Virus record (IMG/VR): IMGVR_UViG_3300032287_000440
Coordinates: 1 to 34,370 of that record
Length of the DNA: 34,370 bases
Source: a virus
Lineage: Duplodnaviria; Caudoviricetes
Direction: 5' to 3' (one strand)
Shown: positions 20,450 through 28,346 of the stretch, in pieces
How the letters are laid out: each line of letters starts with the position of its first letter
How positions within the stretch are numbered: the first letter of the stretch is position 1
Notes under the pieces: generated by a model
Seen by the model: the letters and a program-made list of their open reading frames with translations, nothing else
What the model was told of the DNA's origin: nothing
Database searches by the model: none
Made by a program: the position numbers and the translations under genes

Positions 20450-20492
20450 TTTTTGCTCCGTCCAAAATCAAGTGTGCTTCTGCGTTGGTCAT
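20283..20492 (-). CDS. Hypothetical protein
   Basis: MT.AEA..ILD..K.G...N.AL..TGDL; SD AGGAG; ATGA-coupled to MTase. Confidence 0.55.
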   Translation of the reverse strand: MTNAEAHLILDGAKNGIPTPQYKVNLALLVTGDLGIHTRGRGSGMDKEIPGESQRGWPERCPDMVGQNH

Positions 20493-21304
20493 TTAAATGC
20501 TCCTGCTAACAATCGGAAGGCTTCTGCGGCACAGAGGGGGACTTGTCCGTTGCCAATGGATTTAAGTCTGTCCACCCTAGCGGCCACCCCATCAGCCACT
20601 CGACCCACGTTGGGTTCAGCTTGCCACCATTTCCCGCCCCCATTAGCCTGGCTTCCTCGATGGTTGTGTTCTTGTTCAGCAGTTCCCATGAACCTGTCCC
20701 GCCACACATCCCAGCCGTTCTCGGTGTGGGCCAATTCACTTGCGCTGTCAGCGTTGGCGTGTTCCTGTTGTGTTCGCTTGGCGCGTTCGTTTCTTTTGCC
20801 ATATGTGCTGTTGGTGTAGGCCACGATCCACATTCTGTCCCTCTGGTGATTGGCTCCAACGTCTGCTGCTCCCATAACAGTCCATCGACAGTCATACCCC
20901 AGCGCGGCAAGGTCTGCAATGACTCTGGTTCCTCCTCTAGTAGTGAGCATTGGGGAGTTTTCCACGAACACGAATCGGGGTCGAACTTCGCCAACCAACC
21001 GCGCCATATGTTTCCACATTCCTGATCTTTCTCCATCAAGTCCATCACCTTTTCCTGCCGCACTAATGTCCTGACATGGAAATCCACCACTGATGACATC
21101 GACAACTCCTCGCCATGGATGTCCGTCAAAGGTTTGAACGTCATCCCAAATCGGGAAAGGCGGGAGAAGGTTGTCATTTTGTCGGGCGCACAGTACGCTT
21201 GCGGGATAGGGTTCCCACTCAACGGCGCAGACGGTTCGCCATCCAAGGAGTTTTTCCCCAAGTATTCCTCCACCAGCGCCCGCGAATAAAGCCAACTCAT
21301 TCAT
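20489..21304 (-). CDS. C5 cytosine DNA methyltransferase, catalytic (alpha) chain lacking motif IX
   Basis: Motif I LFAGAGG, IV GGFPCQDIS, VI VENS, VIII HQRDR, X LKSIGNGQVP. Confidence 0.92.
   Translation of the reverse strand: MNELALFAGAGGGILGEKLLGWRTVCAVEWEPYPASVLCARQNDNLLPPFPIWDDVQTFDGHPWRGVVDVISGGFPCQDISAAGKGDGLDGERSGMWKHMARLVGEVRPRFVFVENSPMLTTRGGTRVIADLAALGYDCRWTVMGAADVGANHQRDRMWIVAYTNSTYGKRNERAKRTQQEHANADSASELAHTENGWDVWRDRFMGTAEQEHNHRGSQANGGGKWWQAEPNVGRVADGVAARVDRLKSIGNGQVPLCAAEAFRLLAGAFK
20506..21300 (-). CDS. Overprinted MTase partner (beta) chain carrying motif IX and putative TRD
   Basis: 264-codon alternative frame with its own ATG and SD; two WPTP repeats; LNPTWVEWLMGWPLGWT. Confidence 0.75.
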   Translation of the reverse strand: MSWLYSRALVEEYLGKNSLDGEPSAPLSGNPIPQAYCAPDKMTTFSRLSRFGMTFKPLTDIHGEELSMSSVVDFHVRTLVRQEKVMDLMEKDQECGNIWRGWLAKFDPDSCSWKTPQCSLLEEEPESLQTLPRWGMTVDGLLWEQQTLEPITRGTECGSWPTPTAHMAKETNAPSEHNRNTPTLTAQVNWPTPRTAGMCGGTGSWELLNKNTTIEEARLMGAGNGGKLNPTWVEWLMGWPLGWTDLNPLATDKSPSVPQKPSDC

Positions 21305-22308: not shown

Positions 22309-22473
22309 TCATTGAATAACATCAAACCATTTGGGCCGCAAAAGCATTAGCTGGTAAATCCGTCCTTGTGGGATAGATTTCCATTGCCAAACCGCCCCTC
22401 TGGTGACCCCCAGGAGGCGTGCTAGGTTGGCTTGTGAGCCAGCCAGTTCAATTGCTTTATCTTTTGTCAACAT
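22309..22473 (-). CDS. cro: Cro-like HTH regulator (probably leaderless)
   Basis: AIELAGSQANLARLLGVTRGAVWQW..IP..R.YQL; ATG 6 nt after -10 TATACT with no SD. Confidence 0.85.
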   Translation of the reverse strand: MLTKDKAIELAGSQANLARLLGVTRGAVWQWKSIPQGRIYQLMLLRPKWFDVIQ

Positions 22474-22479
22474 TCTGCG

Positions 22480-22562
22480 AGTATAGAATCCTAGACGAAA
22501 ATACAACACATAACCCTGTATTGCGCTTGGGTATTGAGTTGTGGTCTAGTTTGCTATACACT
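22480..22562. promoter_or_regulatory. Divergent promoters with two operator-like palindromes
   Basis: Leftward -10 TATACT at 22480-85; rightward TTGAGT-17-TACACT at 22534-62; GTCTAG-N4-CTATAC at 22481-96 (-) and 22544-59 (+). Confidence 0.7.
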
Positions 22563-22608
22563 TCAGTCATCCCGTAGCGCAATGCAAGCGGTCTTTTAAG
22601 GAGCAAGT

Positions 22609-22755
22609 ATGAAGCAAGCGTATGTTGTTGAGTTCAACACCACAAACACTTCTGATGGCTGGTCAAGGATTGAATTCACTTCAATCACTAAGGCTTTGGG
22701 ATTTGTTTCCCTGATGGTCAAGCGCGGCTGCCATTGCCAAATTTTCCAAGCATAA
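22609..22755 (+). CDS. 48-aa early hypothetical protein (not in ORF track)
   Basis: SD TAAGGAG; MKQAYVVEF...CHCQIFQA. Confidence 0.65.
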   Translation: MKQAYVVEFNTTNTSDGWSRIEFTSITKALGFVSLMVKRGCHCQIFQA

Positions 22756-22767
22756 AGGAGCACACAC

Positions 22768-22911
22768 ATGAAGAACTACCAAACCCCCCGCAACCTCGCA
22801 GACGCCACCTACACGGTTGGCTACTCCACCAGCAAGCCTGAAAGGGTCTTGCGGTATGTCTACGCATTCGCCGCAGGTTTCCTACTTGCCATGATCGTTT
22901 TTGGAGGTTGA
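22768..22911 (+). CDS. 47-aa early membrane protein (not in ORF track)
   Basis: SD AAGGAG; C-terminal TM VYAFAAGFLLAMIVFGG. Confidence 0.65.
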   Translation: MKNYQTPRNLADATYTVGYSTSKPERVLRYVYAFAAGFLLAMIVFGG

Positions 22912-22913
22912 AC

Positions 22914-23099
22914 ATGAACGCACAACAAATCATTGAAAGCATCCGTGACTACCGTGATGCCCATTTTTCCAAGGATGACCCCATGCGTACCGAGTACCAA
23001 GTGGGATGCCTTGAGACAAAGATCATGGAACTCTGTTTCATTTACAACAACACCGTGGAAGCCATGCGCGAGATTCAGCGCGATTTGGAGGCGAAATGA
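22914..23099 (+). CDS. Hypothetical early protein
   Basis: SD GGAGG; ATG 22914. Confidence 0.6.
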   Translation: MNAQQIIESIRDYRDAHFSKDDPMRTEYQVGCLETKIMELCFIYNNTVEAMREIQRDLEAK

Positions 23100-23344
23100 G
23101 ATACCTAGTCCTAATCCCTGCAATCCTTCTGGTGGGTTGCTCATCAACTTCCTCGCCGAATGCGGCACAACAAGAATTGGTGCTTGATAAGCACGTTCAG
23201 CCCTTGAGCCGCAACGAGGTGATCTATGCGGTTCGTGAATGCGAAACCAACAAAACCCGCGCCGTGATGATCTTTGGCAAACGCAAGATCAATGGCTACA
23301 CAACAGACGTTGTGGTTGACGTAACGTGCGCCCCTAAGTGGTAA
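23096..23344 (+). CDS. Early lipoprotein
   Basis: Lipobox LLVG/C after hydrophobic leader; two further Cys. Confidence 0.7.
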   Translation: MRYLVLIPAILLVGCSSTSSPNAAQQELVLDKHVQPLSRNEVIYAVRECETNKTRAVMIFGKRKINGYTTDVVVDVTCAPKW

Positions 23345-23353
23345 GGAGACATC

Positions 23354-23956
23354 ATGGAAACACCAATCGGAATGAAAGTAGCGGCGGCATTTGTCAAGGC
23401 TCAAAAAGAGTTTGGCCCTGCGCTTAAGCTGTCAAGCAATCAGGCATTCAAACAAAACGGCAGGGTCAGCCGATACGCTGATTTGACGTCTTGCCTAGAG
23501 GCGGTTATGGACGCGCTGAACAACAACGGAATCGCATTGATGCAACGCACTTACGAATGCAAAGACGGGGTGATGTTGGAGACTGTGTTTCTGCACGAAT
23601 CTGGCGAGGTATTAGAGGGTGGGTTGCTTCATGTACCAGCGACCAAACATGACGCGCATGGATATGGCTCTGCCCTGACCTATGCTCGGAGATACAGCCT
23701 CATGGCAACCTGCGGCATATCGGCAGAAGATGACGATGGAAATGCGGCATCTGGCAAACCAGAACCCAAGCCCACAACCAAGGTTGACCCCGGCATGATG
23801 GCAGACCACCTGGCGGCAATCGAGGCGTGCATTGATATGACAACCCTCAAGACTACTTACAACGCCGCCTATGCGTCTTGTGATGGGGATGCGGTTTGGC
23901 AAGCAAAGGTAATGGCAGCAAAAGACAAGCGCAAAAAGGAGTTAACAAATGGATAA
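23354..23956 (+). CDS. erf: ERF-family ssDNA annealing protein
   Basis: YADL and GSALTYARRYSL..G...EDDDGN motifs. Confidence 0.92.
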   Translation: METPIGMKVAAAFVKAQKEFGPALKLSSNQAFKQNGRVSRYADLTSCLEAVMDALNNNGIALMQRTYECKDGVMLETVFLHESGEVLEGGLLHVPATKHDAHGYGSALTYARRYSLMATCGISAEDDDGNAASGKPEPKPTTKVDPGMMADHLAAIEACIDMTTLKTTYNAAYASCDGDAVWQAKVMAAKDKRKKELTNG

Positions 23957-24170
23957 CAAACAAGACATAGATTTGCTTTTTGAAACAAACAGCGCTGATT
24001 TAGAGGCATTGCAGGATGCTCAATTTACCCTTGAAGCAATTAAAAGTGCTGACCCAGGCACTTACGATGAAATCATTGATGATTCTTTAAGACTTATTCA
24101 AAAATCATTGAGTATGAGTCCTCAAAGTTCCATAGAAAGACTAGCAAAACAGTTAGGAGTCAATATATGA
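23949..24170 (+). CDS. Hypothetical protein (AT-rich)
   Basis: SD AAGGAG; overlaps erf stop. Confidence 0.6.
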   Translation: MDNKQDIDLLFETNSADLEALQDAQFTLEAIKSADPGTYDEIIDDSLRLIQKSLSMSPQSSIERLAKQLGVNI

Positions 24171-24664
24171 GAAAGCACTACCTTTTACCAAGTGACTTTG
24201 CTGGATTTGCGGTAACTAAATTTAAGAGGGCAAAAGATGCGGCATTAAAAGCAAAACGGGAATTGCTGGCAAAAGAAAACGCAGAGGCCGTGTTAAGGAT
24301 TGAGCGTCAAGGTTTGGGATTGATCTACAAAGAAAAAACTGTTCGATCTGGGTTTACGTTGCCAACAAGTTATGAAGGTTATTGGCTAATCAAGCCAAAG
24401 AAAAACACAATCATAGGAAAGCGTGTTCAAAAAGAAATGGACGATGTTTGCAAGTTACTTGACGATTGGCAATGGTCAACAGAGAACGCTTTAGGCATAT
24501 ACGAATCTGTGTATGACAGAAGGGAATTCCACAACACGGTTTGTTACGCCCTAAAAGATGATTTAGTTGCAGTCAGTCAGCACAAGGACACAAAACATCA
24601 ACTGCCAGAGCAATATGCAATAACAAAAGAACTGTTTGAAACAATAATTAAGGAGGCAATTTAA
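24167..24664 (+). CDS. Hypothetical protein (AT-rich)
   Basis: SD TAGGAG; ATGA coupling. Confidence 0.65.
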   Translation: MRKHYLLPSDFAGFAVTKFKRAKDAALKAKRELLAKENAEAVLRIERQGLGLIYKEKTVRSGFTLPTSYEGYWLIKPKKNTIIGKRVQKEMDDVCKLLDDWQWSTENALGIYESVYDRREFHNTVCYALKDDLVAVSQHKDTKHQLPEQYAITKELFETIIKEAI

Positions 24665-25275
24665 TGGAACAGAAATCAGAAGAATGGTTCAAAGCCCGTT
24701 TGGGCAAGGTAACCGCAAGCCGTGTTGCTGACGTACTAGCCAAGACAAAAACGGGCTACAGCGCCAGCCGTGATAACTACATGGCTCAGTTGGTGGTGGA
24801 GCGCATGACCAACACTCAGGCTGAATCGTTTACCAATGCTGCCATGCAATGGGGAACGGATCAAGAGCCGTTTGCAAGGGCGGCTTACGAAGTCCAACAG
24901 AACGTTCTGGTAGACGAAACCGGCCTAGTCGATCACCCAACGATTGCGATGGCTGGCGCGTCTCCTGACGGCCTAGTGGGGGAAGATGGGTTGGTGGAGA
25001 TCAAATGCCCCAACACGGCTACCCATATTGATACGCTATTGACGCAGACTGTGCCTGGGAAATACATTACGCAGATGCAATTCCAGATGGCGTGTACCGG
25101 GCGTCAGTGGTGTGATTTTGTCTCTTTTGACCCGAGGATGCCTAGTAAAGCACAATTGTTTGTCAAAAGGGTGCAACGGGACGATGGTTTTATAAAGGAG
25201 ATGGAATCGGAGATAACAAAGTTCTTGGCAGAAGTCACAGCCAAGGTGGAGCAACTTAACAAACTAATCGCATGA
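24664..25275 (+). CDS. YqaJ / lambda-exonuclease family nuclease
   Basis: EQ.SEEW..AR.GKVTAS, GASPDGL, EIKCP and Y..QMQ.QM motifs. Confidence 0.93.
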   Translation: MEQKSEEWFKARLGKVTASRVADVLAKTKTGYSASRDNYMAQLVVERMTNTQAESFTNAAMQWGTDQEPFARAAYEVQQNVLVDETGLVDHPTIAMAGASPDGLVGEDGLVEIKCPNTATHIDTLLTQTVPGKYITQMQFQMACTGRQWCDFVSFDPRMPSKAQLFVKRVQRDDGFIKEMESEITKFLAEVTAKVEQLNKLIA

Positions 25276-25541
25276 AACATCAATTCGACATCAAATTTGC
25301 CGCCCGTAAGTACAAAACCACACATGGAGAAGAAAGAACCTACTGGAGCCCTCATGGGACGGTTTGGATTGAATCTGACCAGCCTTTGGACATCAAAAGC
25401 CTGACCATCAAGATTGACAGCATTCCGCAGTCAGCCAATTGGGAAGGTTATTTCAAAGCATTTGCCCACCGCCCCAAAGAAGAAGGCAATATGTACCCCA
25501 AGGGAGGATTCCCTCCCAACGATTACAACGAAGATTTCTGA
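25272..25541 (+). CDS. Putative small ssDNA-binding protein
   Basis: Follows erf/exo; aromatic beta strands; acidic C-terminus DYNEDF. Confidence 0.55.
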   Translation: MKHQFDIKFAARKYKTTHGEERTYWSPHGTVWIESDQPLDIKSLTIKIDSIPQSANWEGYFKAFAHRPKEEGNMYPKGGFPPNDYNEDF

Positions 25542-25546
25542 TTAAC

Positions 25547-25628
25547 GGGCGGGAAAACGGGTTAGCGCCGTGGTCACTTTTCTAAAGTGTTGTTCAAGCC
25601 TACGCTGCTTTATGCGACCCGCCCACCA
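25547..25628 (+). ncRNA. Degenerate tRNA-like RNA with encoded CCA
   Basis: 7-bp GGGCGGG/CCCGCCC stem plus ACCA; D-like and anticodon-like hairpins; non-canonical T arm. Confidence 0.6.
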
Positions 25629-25642
25629 CCTGGAGCACACAA

Positions 25643-25960
25643 ATGAGCATTTTTGACGTATTGAAGAAAACCAACATCTTTCCCAGGGTTCGCAACGCCG
25701 ACCCCAACACAAGCGCCGAGGCTGCTGACAAGGCCGGTAACCTGTCCATACAGCATGGGGAAATCATTGTTCAGGCTCTGGTTGCCTACGGGCCAATGGG
25801 CAAGGATCAGATTGCCGAGGTGACCTATCTGGACGGAAACCAGGTCGCCAGACGCATGAAGGAACTAGAAACTCTGGGGTTAGTCCATTTGACCGGGCGC
25901 ACCGTAAAGAACAAATCAGGCCGTCAGGAACGTGAGTGGGCGGCTACAATGTGTGCTTGA
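25643..25960 (+). CDS. Winged-helix DNA-binding protein
   Basis: R..DP.TS.EAA N-motif; QVARR.KEL...GLV..TG....SGR..R.W. Confidence 0.75.
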   Translation: MSIFDVLKKTNIFPRVRNADPNTSAEAADKAGNLSIQHGEIIVQALVAYGPMGKDQIAEVTYLDGNQVARRMKELETLGLVHLTGRTVKNKSGRQEREWAATMCA

Positions 25961-25984
25961 CAAGTCCCTAGATTTGTCGAAAAT
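25957..25984 (+). promoter_or_regulatory. Putative promoter overlapped by an inverted repeat
   Basis: TTGACA-16-GAAAAT; GACAAGTC-N4-GATTTGTC at 25959-78. Confidence 0.5.
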
Positions 25985-26015
25985 TGAATTTCCCACAACC
26001 TTGCAAGGAATCAAA

Positions 26016-26231
26016 ATGGGCAAAATGGACAGCATGAAAGGTGTTAAGAGCACCACCGGCGCAATCCCTCCCAAGGGCGCAACCTCCAGCGATATGTCTG
26101 GTGAGCGCAAGGGCAAGATGGTAGGCGGCGTGGCAATGGGTATGGAAGATGCAACGGGCGCTGACAAGCAGTTCAATACTGGTCGCACCCCCGGCGTTTG
26201 CTACACCCACACCCGTAGCGAATACCGCTAA
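26016..26231 (+). CDS. Small G/K/M-rich hypothetical protein
   Basis: SD AAGGA; ATG 26016. Confidence 0.6.
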   Translation: MGKMDSMKGVKSTTGAIPPKGATSSDMSGERKGKMVGGVAMGMEDATGADKQFNTGRTPGVCYTHTRSEYR

Positions 26232-26297
26232 AACGAGGAACGCTAGGGAATGCCCTCCCTAACGTCCTCTAAACTCAACTGATAAGGAGTTGAATCT

Positions 26298-26543
26298 GTG
26301 AATCATTGTAGCGATTGTCGGCACTTTGTCGATCAAGAGATCATGGGTCAATGCCGAGCCCATCCACAGTTTTTCCACAAACACCGAAACGATTGGTGTG
26401 GAGAACTGTCACCAAAGCCGCTGCCAAACACCACGGTCACGGTGTCTGCTGGTAGCGCGGTCATTCTGCCCGTTGTAGACGCAATGACGGAGCCAAAAAA
26501 ACGCAAATACACCCGGAGGCAAGATGCTAAAACCTCTGCGTGA
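26298..26543 (+). CDS. Cys-rich putative metal-binding protein
   Basis: CxxC..F...G.C...P...WCGE; SD TAAGGAG; GTG start. Confidence 0.65.
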   Translation: MNHCSDCRHFVDQEIMGQCRAHPQFFHKHRNDWCGELSPKPLPNTTVTVSAGSAVILPVVDAMTEPKKRKYTRRQDAKTSA

Positions 26544-26811
26544 CAAGATCATTGTTAAGCCAGCACAGCGTTTCCAGTCTGAATTCTTGGATTTAAGCCA
26601 GGTTCAGGGCGTAGAAACCGTGGGATTTGTGGTCGCCGTTGGCCCAGAAGCCGAGGATGTTGGCCTGAATGTTGGCGACAAGGTGCATTTTGGTACTGTT
26701 GCGGCAGATGCTGGCAATGAATACCTAAAATTTGAAACTGTAAAGATTGACGGACAAAGCCATATCAAAATGTCATGGCAAGACGTTTGCTTTGTTGAGG
26801 AACAAGAATGA
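26524..26811 (+). CDS. groES: GroES-like co-chaperonin
   Basis: LKPLRDKIIV, G.VVAVGP and VGDKV.F motifs. Confidence 0.85.
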   Translation: MLKPLRDKIIVKPAQRFQSEFLDLSQVQGVETVGFVVAVGPEAEDVGLNVGDKVHFGTVAADAGNEYLKFETVKIDGQSHIKMSWQDVCFVEEQE

Positions 26812-26987
26812 CCAAAGAACTTATCCAGACTCGAATCCAAGACCTGATTGCCAAAGGCAAGGAATTGGAGCAAACTGCTCACCAGACCCAGGTGCAATTG
26901 CAGCAGATCAATGGTGCATTGCAACAATGCCAATGGTTTCTGACTGAACTGGAGAAGCAAAATGCCCCTACAGAAGTCCAAGACTGA
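26808..26987 (+). CDS. 59-aa coiled-coil protein (not in ORF track)
   Basis: ATGA coupling; MTKELIQTRIQDL...INGALQQCQWFL. Confidence 0.6.
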   Translation: MTKELIQTRIQDLIAKGKELEQTAHQTQVQLQQINGALQQCQWFLTELEKQNAPTEVQD

Positions 26988-27105
26988 AAAAGCCTTCAAA
27001 GAAAACATCAAAGCCGAGGTGAAGGCAGGGAAACCTGTCAAACAGGCGGTTGCGATTGCTTACAGCACCAAGCGTGAAGCTGAAAAGAAGGCGAAAAAGA
27101 AATGA
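26962..27105 (+). CDS. 47-aa Lys-rich protein (not in ORF track)
   Basis: MPLQKSK..AFKENIKAE.KAGKP.KQAVAIAYS; SD GGAG. Confidence 0.7.
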   Translation: MPLQKSKTEKAFKENIKAEVKAGKPVKQAVAIAYSTKREAEKKAKKK

Positions 27106-27374
27106 AAAAGCACGACAAGTCCATTCCCCACAAGACCACGGGCAAGGACAAGACCTACAACCCGACCGAAAAGGGTGCGGGGATGACGGCAAAAGGTCGT
27201 GCTGAATACAACGCCAAGAACAACGCCAACCTGAAGCCGCCAGCGCCTAACCCCAAAACCAAGAAGGACGAGGGGCGTAAAGCCTCTTTCTGCGCCAGGA
27301 TGGAAGGGGTAGTCAAGAACGCCAAAGGCCCGGCAGAACGTGCCAAAGCCTCTCTAAAGAACTGGAATTGCTAA
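27102..27374 (+). CDS. Basic phage protein with SFCARM motif
   Basis: GMTAKGRA.YN, NLK.P and RKASFCARM..W.C. Confidence 0.7.
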   Translation: MKKHDKSIPHKTTGKDKTYNPTEKGAGMTAKGRAEYNAKNNANLKPPAPNPKTKKDEGRKASFCARMEGVVKNAKGPAERAKASLKNWNC

Positions 27375-27535
27375 TGAAACCCGGACTTTACGCCAACATT
27401 CACCGAAAGCAAGAGCGCATAGAACGGCAAAAGGCAGAGGGAAAGCCTGTGGAAAAGATGCGAAAGCCTGGTTCAGAGGGTGCGCCGACTGCTAAAGCAT
27501 TCAAAGAATCGGCAAAAACTGCCAAAAAGAAGTAA
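27374..27535 (+). CDS. 53-aa Lys-rich protein (not in ORF track)
   Basis: GLYANIH.K..RI...EKMRKPGS.GAPT..AFK.SAKTAKKK; TAATG coupling. Confidence 0.7.
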   Translation: MKPGLYANIHRKQERIERQKAEGKPVEKMRKPGSEGAPTAKAFKESAKTAKKK

Positions 27536-27544
27536 AGTTATCAT

Positions 27545-27636
27545 GTTGGGTGTTAAGCCAGCATTCGAGGATGTCAATGTGGGGTGTTTTCTGGCTTTCC
27601 ATCCTGCCTAGTTAACGACCAAATCGAGCCCAACCA
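27545..27636 (+). ncRNA. Structured, possibly tRNA-like/pseudoknotted RNA
   Basis: GUUGGG/CCCAAC closure; three internal hairpins; AAGCCAG/CUGGCUU complement; ends ACCA. Confidence 0.55.
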
Positions 27637-28346
27637 TGCCTACTTTAGCCGACATTTACAGCGCAATAGGAACTGCCAGACGCAAGGCGTCAGACTTTGT
27701 GCAGAACCCTATGACCAGTCTGCAACAGATGGCTGGTAATGCCAATGACCGGGCTAGGGCATTGAATGAGATGACTGCGGCGGCGGCAGAGGAAAAAGAA
27801 CTCTACGGGCCAGCAAACCGGGCGCTTGGGGCTAAGTTAGCAGAGGCTTACAACCCTATGGGGATGACTGTTTACCACGGCAGTCCTCATCTCTTTGAGC
27901 GTTTTGATCTTGGAAAAATGGGTAGCGGAACTGGGCAACAAGTCTATGGAAAAGGCTTGTATATGGCTGAAAATCCTGCGACTGCACAAAAATATCAAAA
28001 AAACGTCAAAGATTTAGAAAATCCGGGCAATTTATACAAAGTTGATCTTCCAGACACTCATGTCCGCAGGATGTTGGACTTTGATGAACCATTGAAAAAT
28101 CAACCTAAGAAAGTTAGAGATTTGGCTAAATCGCTTAATCTAGACTTGAATGATCTTGGTGGCGATTTGCTTGAAAGAATTGGAAAAGGCGAACAAGGCA
28201 AAAAGATTCTTCAAGACGCAGGAATAACAGGCATTAAGTATTACAACGAGATGAGTGGCGGCAAAGATTTGTGGAAGCGAAATTTCGTAGTGTTTGACCC
28301 GAATCACCTGACCATCCTTGAGCGAAACGCTGAAAATATCAAATGA
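27636..28346 (+). CDS. ADP-ribosyltransferase-fold (ART-PolyVal-like) protein
   Basis: VYHGS..FERFD, YGKGLY.AE, GNLYKV, GITGIKY and NFVVFDP motifs. Confidence 0.65.
   Translation: MPTLADIYSAIGTARRKASDFVQNPMTSLQQMAGNANDRARALNEMTAAAAEEKELYGPANRALGAKLAEAYNPMGMTVYHGSPHLFERFDLGKMGSGTGQQVYGKGLYMAENPATAQKYQKNVKDLENPGNLYKVDLPDTHVRRMLDFDEPLKNQPKKVRDLAKSLNLDLNDLGGDLLERIGKGEQGKKILQDAGITGIKYYNEMSGGKDLWKRNFVVFDPNHLTILERNAENIK

Follow-up and report, generated by a model that had tools for sequence, protein, structure and literature searches.

An apparently uncatalogued phage RNA family with a closing stem and two fixed-loop hairpins around an exchangeable insert

An 82-base element in a phage recombination block

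The window, that is the whole stretch of 34,370 bases that was analysed, belongs to a tailed phage in which genes for portal, terminase, capsid, Erf, YqaJ exonuclease and a RusA-like protein were identified. In the recombination block on the + strand, the gap between an ORF of 89 amino acids and an ORF of 105 amino acids is filled by an element of 82 bases (Table 1). This element is the sole strong match of model R1 across the window, with a score that has to be read in view of the fact that the window sequence was included in the training set of the model. The 89-aa ORF matched no family in PHROG or Pfam; its product is possibly a single-stranded DNA-binding protein, judging from position and acidic tail only. 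The place of the 105-aa ORF is taken by other, differing ORFs in the close relatives L001 to L008. Since a consensus scan of positions 22448 to 28000 revealed no terminator on the + strand, the element is probably co-transcribed with its neighbours. The RNA data consisted of assembled contigs (24 runs, of which 7 were compared; runs without cover prove nothing), and contigs from three runs of two studies span the element (25413-25670, 25485-25782 and 25490-25640); as they continue past both of its ends and leave precursor RNA indistinguishable from DNA, they show neither a discrete RNA nor transcription.

Table 1. Positions of the element, its parts and the neighbouring genes in the window
Feature	Position	Strand	Remark
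Erf gene	23354-23956		precedes the 89-aa ORF
YqaJ exonuclease gene	24664-25275		precedes the 89-aa ORF
89-aa ORF upstream, acidic tail followed by a final Phe	25272-25541	+	hypothetical relatives only
Whole RNA unit, subfamily with AGUGUUGU insert	25547-25628	+	model R1, 68 bits
P1 closing stem, 5' strand, G first	25547-25553	+	partner 25618-25624
P2 hairpin, loop GUUAGCG (family NUUAGYN)	25557-25571	+	99% paired, compensating changes
Variable insert, 31 nt, with GGU/GCC stem, optional CACU/AGUG stem and AGUGUUGU at 25586-25593	25572-25602	+	
P4 hairpin, 3 bp, loop UGCUUUAU (family UGCUWNAU)	25603-25616	+	compensating changes, loop variants
P1 3' strand and ACCA tail (25625-25628)	25618-25628	+	similarity of the closest relatives stops exactly at ACCA
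105-aa ORF downstream, weak winged-helix match	25643-25960	+	phrog_1123, sub-threshold Pfam wHTH

Two further observations were made in the window. A sigma-70-like promoter (10 of 12) is located within 25957-26267 ahead of a short Gly/Met-rich ORF ending at 26231, which is followed by a 13-bp hairpin at 26238-26267, and contigs confined to about 25976-26317 were present in several river RNA libraries. On the - strand, the overlapping ORFs 20489-21304 and 20506-21300 lie in different frames and both match DNA methyltransferase PHROGs, an arrangement which we take to recall the lambda-type methylase pair with its overlapping frame.

A folded frame and its relation to tRNA

The minimum-energy fold of the element (-30.6) differs from the cloverleaf (-26.7) and, as the stability of the single sequence stands out only modestly against 200 shuffles (z -1.98; matched by 5 of them), a comparison of homologues was needed. 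A common frame was found in 121 of the 135 distinct copies examined, consisting of a closing stem P1 of 6 to 24 bp and free sequence, the hairpin P2 with the loop GUUAGCG, an insert of 21 to 44 nt, the 3-bp hairpin P4 with the loop UGCUUUAU, and a short junction. In alignment A1, which comprised 60 of 120 diverse copies, 86.3% of the cells pair compared with 68.4% in shuffles and 25 to 46% in slid controls, and double changes occur at 15 of 21 pairs, including all 8 column pairs of P1; none of 500 shuffles reached the paired cells and covariation score of this alignment. Among 97 previously unseen copies, P1 forms in 94, P2 in 92 and P4 in 96, whereas the swapped strands used as a control form P1 in 317 of 1904 cases. 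The middle pair of P4 was seen as A-U, G-C, U-A and C-G, and both P2 and P4 were recovered by RNAalifold from the 22-member subfamily. At two fixed positions of P2, G-U was counted 18 times and A-C twice, and this asymmetry fixes the RNA strand as +.

When matches were anchored on one loop, the other loop was kept in 94 of 111 and 65 of 102 distinct matches. The consensus sequences NUUAGYN for P2 and UGCUWNAU for P4 were derived from variants obtained when the respective loop was not selected for, and both loops are nearly invariant across unrelated phages. A contact of 3 bp between AGC in the P2 loop and GCU in the P4 loop is a conserved candidate and could be formed in these RNAs; we infer it from the invariance and from one change that keeps a G-U pair. 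Covariation among homologues, which the preliminary description of the element had proposed as a check, was found for three of the four stems. Judged by sequence comparison, the element represents a real conserved structured RNA family, in which a closing stem and two fixed-loop hairpins surround an exchangeable insert.

In that description the element had been taken for a degenerate tRNA-like RNA, and all its structural observations were confirmed at the positions given. The 7-bp stem GGGCGGG/CCCGCCC followed by ACCA lies where it had been placed, and the hairpins ACGG-GTTAGCG-CCGT in the D position and CGC-TGCTTTAT-GCG in the T position are present, with compensating changes in homologues in the first case and a covarying stem in the second. 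As anticipated, the element is missed by standard scanners (no tRNA with ARAGORN, no family in Rfam). The hallmarks of a tRNA are U8, G18G19 in the D-loop and TTC in the T-loop; their absence from the element, the last from the loop of the 3' hairpin, was verified on the sequence, and the family has the loops NUUAGYN and UGCUWNAU instead. The hairpin CACT-TTTCTAA-AGTG in the anticodon position (25575-25589) is present in the sequence, but its stem is 72.7% paired and without double change in the 22 subfamily members; likewise, the pairing of UAGCG with CGCUG is possible in this copy but broken in 16 of the 22.

Of the tRNA-like topology, the closing stem, the D-position hairpin, the middle arm and the T-position hairpin were retained, but a conserved anticodon was not. 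In this copy a 4-bp stem carries a YU---R loop of 7 nt; among near-identical copies the 'anticodon' loop measures 5, 6 or 7 nt, an anticodon-like hairpin is present in 4 of 112 inserts compared with 4.3 by chance (6 of 22 in the subfamily), and a conserved 5-bp anticodon stem with a 7-nt loop is absent from the inserts of both the subfamily and the family. If the element were a decoy for anticodon nucleases, or a tRNA of unusual build (UCU or amber), the stem, ACCA, loop and cloverleaf-like topology of this copy and the four arms of its subfamily would be accounted for, and family copies are found in arrays with real tRNA genes. At family level both readings are largely refuted and must be regarded as very improbable: the anticodon-like loops at chance level, the middle stem without covariation, the variable loop, the free length of the closing stem and a full NCCA after P1 in only 40 of 182 copies speak against a tRNA (RF00005) as well as against the decoy. 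The family also cautions that a terminal stem with ACCA is, by itself, a sign of stable phage RNA rather than of tRNA mimicry. A hairpin GUGUUG/CUACGC with a T-loop-like loop was tried as T-arm and rejected: although 87% paired, it shows no double change and equals its shuffles; its 3' side follows the A-rich junction found throughout the family.

Distribution, 3' tail and genomic arrangement

The pattern of the two inner loops was estimated to occur in about 610 stretches of IMG/VR and about 870 of metagenomes. In GTDB genomes the same pattern gave 17 matches, of which 12 have the fold and 5 were dropped since the fold is absent; 11 of the folded copies lie in records labelled as Burkholderiales or betaproteobacterial and one in a MAG of the Beijerinckiaceae. 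The carriers of the family are mainly Burkholderiales records, including records of the cultured, non-pathogenic hosts Variovorax paradoxus, Curvibacter and Undibacterium. As the model matched only 2 of 151 genomes sampled from the order, both of them among the GTDB pattern carriers, the family is not a core host RNA. Clustering of the proteins of 27 carrier genomes revealed at least two lineages with few genes in common, and no protein family is common to all 27 (best 18 of 27). A blastn search of INPHARED with the window stretch and one array stretch as queries gave no match, and hence no cultured phage was found. A loose subfamily pattern was discarded as mostly chance, since of 120 only 14 distinct ones passed the filter, one of these without the fold. 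Two tandem family copies are present in one bacterial genome (L156, an Achromobacter record), and a Variovorax record (L152/L163) contains three model matches, two of which are separated by about 1 kb and lie on opposite strands.

Of nine loci reached via the upstream protein, eight carry the element, and in the remaining one, L009, its slot is filled by another structured unit. Relatives differ in what follows the acidic-tail ORF, which may be the element by itself, another unit by itself, or both. Variable occupancy of the slot together with varying downstream genes is as expected of free-standing RNA genes. A second type of module, closed by a G/C stem plus ACC and consisting of a variable insert between fixed ends, occupies the slot of the element in close relatives (8 non-redundant copies; L009 after about 3200, L013:1430-1495 and L045). 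L009 also holds a sub-threshold match to int-alpA RNA at 427-493 on the - strand (32.3 bits compared with 35.8).

P1 is followed directly at its foot by RCC in 82 of 182 copies, compared with a background of 5.7%, and an RCC(A) tail was found in 43 of 94 unseen copies. The ACCA that had been named as a check on homologues is frequent only in this shorter form, the full NCCA being confined to the 40 of 182 copies given above. A 3' RCCA is recognised by bacterial RNase P, which also cleaves RNAs other than tRNA precursors, regulatory RNAs of phages among them (part of PMC4919922). The features of an RNase P substrate (5' G, helix and 3' RCC(A)) are all present in this copy. The processing signal for RNase P suggested in the preliminary description survives in a broader sense, in that the RCC(A)-rich tail fits maturation either of the RNase P type or as a stable RNA. 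The tail is commoner in promoter-proximal copies (44 of 70 compared with 37 of 96), which would have no leader, and this argues against a pure RNase P role. A stop of 3' trimming at such tails is a property of stable RNAs, and the RCC tail may also serve as such a stop.

In 70 of 166 copies the end of a -10-like hexamer lies 3 to 9 nt ahead of P1, compared with 27, 9, 3 and 5 in windows further upstream; the copy described here is not promoter-proximal and sits inside its operon. An ORF lies no more than 50 nt away from 46 of 112 non-redundant copies, and these nearby ORFs are often Cro-like, replication or terminase-like (judged by eye). This arrangement, and the rarity of stand-alone terminated units (terminator within 80 nt in 2 of 112), would suit a leader acting in cis, such as a 5' stabiliser or an antiterminator of the put type, that aids the expression of the downstream operon. 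The put RNA of HK022 has about 70 nt and two stem-loops, lies downstream of PL and PR and needs no phage protein (part of PMC9378689); it resembles the family in length and, as regards the part of the copies counted above, in the position after a promoter but, compared by description and not by sequence, is devoid of closing stem, insert and tRNA-like tail. A leader of this kind is unlikely, because 46 of the 112 copies adjoin other modules or tRNAs, often deep in arrays, tandem duplicates carry different inserts, the close relative L009 is without the element in the same slot, and neither the RCC tail nor the enrichment of anti-Shine-Dalgarno (anti-SD) words described below would be needed.

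The arrays alternate stem-closed modules with different heads, and the family head sits on either type of array stem. Tandem arrays of such modules of 70 to 100 nt were observed at L045:1380-1800, L122, L034, L041, L108, L120 and other loci; they share a stem, comprise at least 57 non-redundant heads, are interspersed with tRNA genes and gave no Rfam match in the 20 loci scanned. Modules are gained or lost as units and the array stems are superficially attC-like, as might be expected if the units were single-stranded DNA structures or recombination sites by which modules are shuffled, and RNA folds are hard to distinguish from those of ssDNA by comparison (part of PMC5737381). We consider such a DNA site highly implausible, given that copies begin at predicted transcription starts, have a multi-branch fold and an RCC tail, neighbour tRNA genes and are enriched in anti-SD words, and that no shared integrase was seen by eye among the 45 most widespread protein clusters.

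The variable insert and the proposed function

The word UCCU occurs in 36 of 114 non-redundant inserts compared with 14.1 in dinucleotide shuffles (maximum 22 in 300), CUCC in 22 compared with 7.1, CCUUUC in 10 compared with 0.8 and GU-rich words in 26 compared with 14.6 (0 of 300 shuffles for each of the four), whereas AGGA is not enriched (9 compared with 8.0) and GGAG only weakly (10 compared with 5.3); since the family members are related, these shuffle tests overstate significance. Of 40 anti-SD words, 32 lie within the first 13 insert bases after P2 and 21 are predicted to be unpaired. In the unseen set such words are present in 33 of 97 inserts, a count without shuffle comparison, and about two thirds of the inserts, including that of this copy, have none. 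The heads of neighbouring array modules show no enrichment of anti-SD words (9 of 57 compared with 9.9), and where two copies share one locus their inserts differ (8 of 8 loci, 6 distinct pairs). Taken with the enrichment, these two results suggest that the insert serves as a module for pairing, subject to the reservation that the members are related. In the subfamily the GGU/GCC stem of the insert covaries, and AGUGUUGU is found in 22 of 22 members and kept whatever the 5' side does, an invariance that is partly by construction because the subfamily was grouped by AGUGUUGU. The shortest inserts have 13 to 21 nt.

Targets were sought in several sequence sets. The inserts paired no better than expected with their own flanks, ranked near uniform against the start regions of their own phage (30 inserts, 7 of them in the top 12%) and had a mean rank of 0.54 against their own downstream ribosome-binding sites (RBS); in one Undibacterium lysogen host, there were 3 non-self matches compared with 5 in the control. 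The 12-mer of this copy had matches in 107 of 401 genomes of the order, with no common gene start in the 30 loci read. Across phages (1.57 Mb of pooled phage DNA, 20 shuffles), complements of at least 13 nt were not enriched (160 compared with 166 to 213), and exact complements of at least 11 nt on real RBS numbered 54 compared with 6 to 45 in shuffles, an excess which is largely the same signal as the anti-SD enrichment. For three start-site complements between phages (16, 14 and 13 nt), no homologue turned up in the remaining phage DNA compared, and anti-AUG words at RBS spacing were not enriched (7 of 40 compared with 4.1; 98 of 1000 shuffles). Short seeds in hosts other than those covered would escape all of these tests.

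We tentatively propose, as a reading that is quite possible though not yet probable, that the element is a stable, C4-like small RNA matured by the host, the insert of which base-pairs with other mRNAs, probably those of the host, and blocks their translation. Here the RNA would be co-transcribed in the Erf-YqaJ operon and excised by host RNases: RNase P, directed by the stem and ACCA, would cut at G25547, and the 3' end would be trimmed back to ACCA. In promoter-proximal copies, transcription itself would start with the first G and no cutting would be required. Docking of the two fixed loops (AGC/GCU) would fold the RNA compactly into an L resembling that of a tRNA, which would either make it more stable or recruit a host factor, and unpaired words of the insert would pair with the target, namely CU-rich anti-SD words in about one third of the inserts and AGUGUUGU in this copy.

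It is conceivable, if somewhat doubtful, that the fixed loop-loop frame is itself the active part, as an RNA that works in trans by binding a host protein or serving as a decoy for it (a sensor or effector of defence, or a factor of translation or RNA decay), and that the insert is secondary. The near invariance of the loops in unrelated phages would follow naturally, the very short inserts are tolerated, the target searches found none, and real tRNA genes stand beside copies in 4 of 20 hand-picked loci. Such a decoy leaves the positioned anti-SD words and the different inserts of paired copies unexplained, however, and no partner protein was identified among the 27 genomes compared.

The proposal of a targeting small RNA can be widened to freshwater betaproteobacterial phages in general, which would use a tRNA-shaped, host-matured chassis with swappable targeting inserts, shuffled in arrays with tRNAs and RNA modules, as phage-specific silencers of translation that need no phage protein; in this wide form it appears improbable. 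Few phage small RNAs have been described, mostly as one-offs, whereas this family is common and its frame sharply defined. With such a frame and hundreds of natural insert variants, function is directly testable by insert swaps and loop mutation. If the insert targets, phages diversify RNA regulators on one chassis, and the frame would offer a compact synthetic sRNA scaffold for Burkholderiales.

Among the closest known systems are the C4 antisense RNA of P1 and P7 (RF01695) and the CI RNA of P4. The targets of C4 adjoin it in the same phage, whereas no local target was found for the family inserts in own flanks, start regions or downstream RBS. C4 has about 77 nt, is cut by RNase P and has one loop over an RBS and one variable loop (part of PMC5320573). 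The family likewise comprises phage-encoded RNAs of about 80 nt with a G-initial closing stem and a multi-stem fold with variable single-stranded parts, but it has other conserved loops and no Rfam match even at permissive E. RNAC and RNAD of T4 are located within a tRNA cluster. They are small phage RNAs of unknown function (part of PMC9697503), from which the fixed two-hairpin frame with its exchangeable insert is set apart by description and not by sequence.

No family of Rfam 15 matched the element, whether gathering or permissive thresholds were applied. Resemblances to pistol and hammerhead ribozymes, boxA, the purine riboswitch and the GcvB seed were rejected on alignment. Literature searches by motif word and topic found no description in the text covered; the motif may be among the published candidate lists of PMC10690425 (10,000 viral candidates) and PMC5737381. 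On the comparative evidence, the family is real and uncatalogued and belongs to a generally known kind of phage RNA; its small-RNA function is proposed only.

CU-rich sRNAs of Burkholderia carry unpaired words complementary to ribosome-binding sites (part of PMC5688073). The 'toxic' double-hairpin sRNAs (RF02278) and anti-hemB (RF02837), as far as that part describes them, resemble the family in their host group and, as regards the third or so of the inserts that have them, in CU-rich anti-RBS words; they differ in being chromosomal, with a terminator and U-tail, whereas the family is phage-borne with a closing stem and RCC tail. Membership in RF02278 was indicated neither by Rfam, which gave no match, nor by the terminators, found as stated in only two copies. 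At L291:670-742, an anti-hemB-like CU-rich sRNA with a terminator follows directly after a family copy; its match (E 1.5e-4) does not reach the gathering score.
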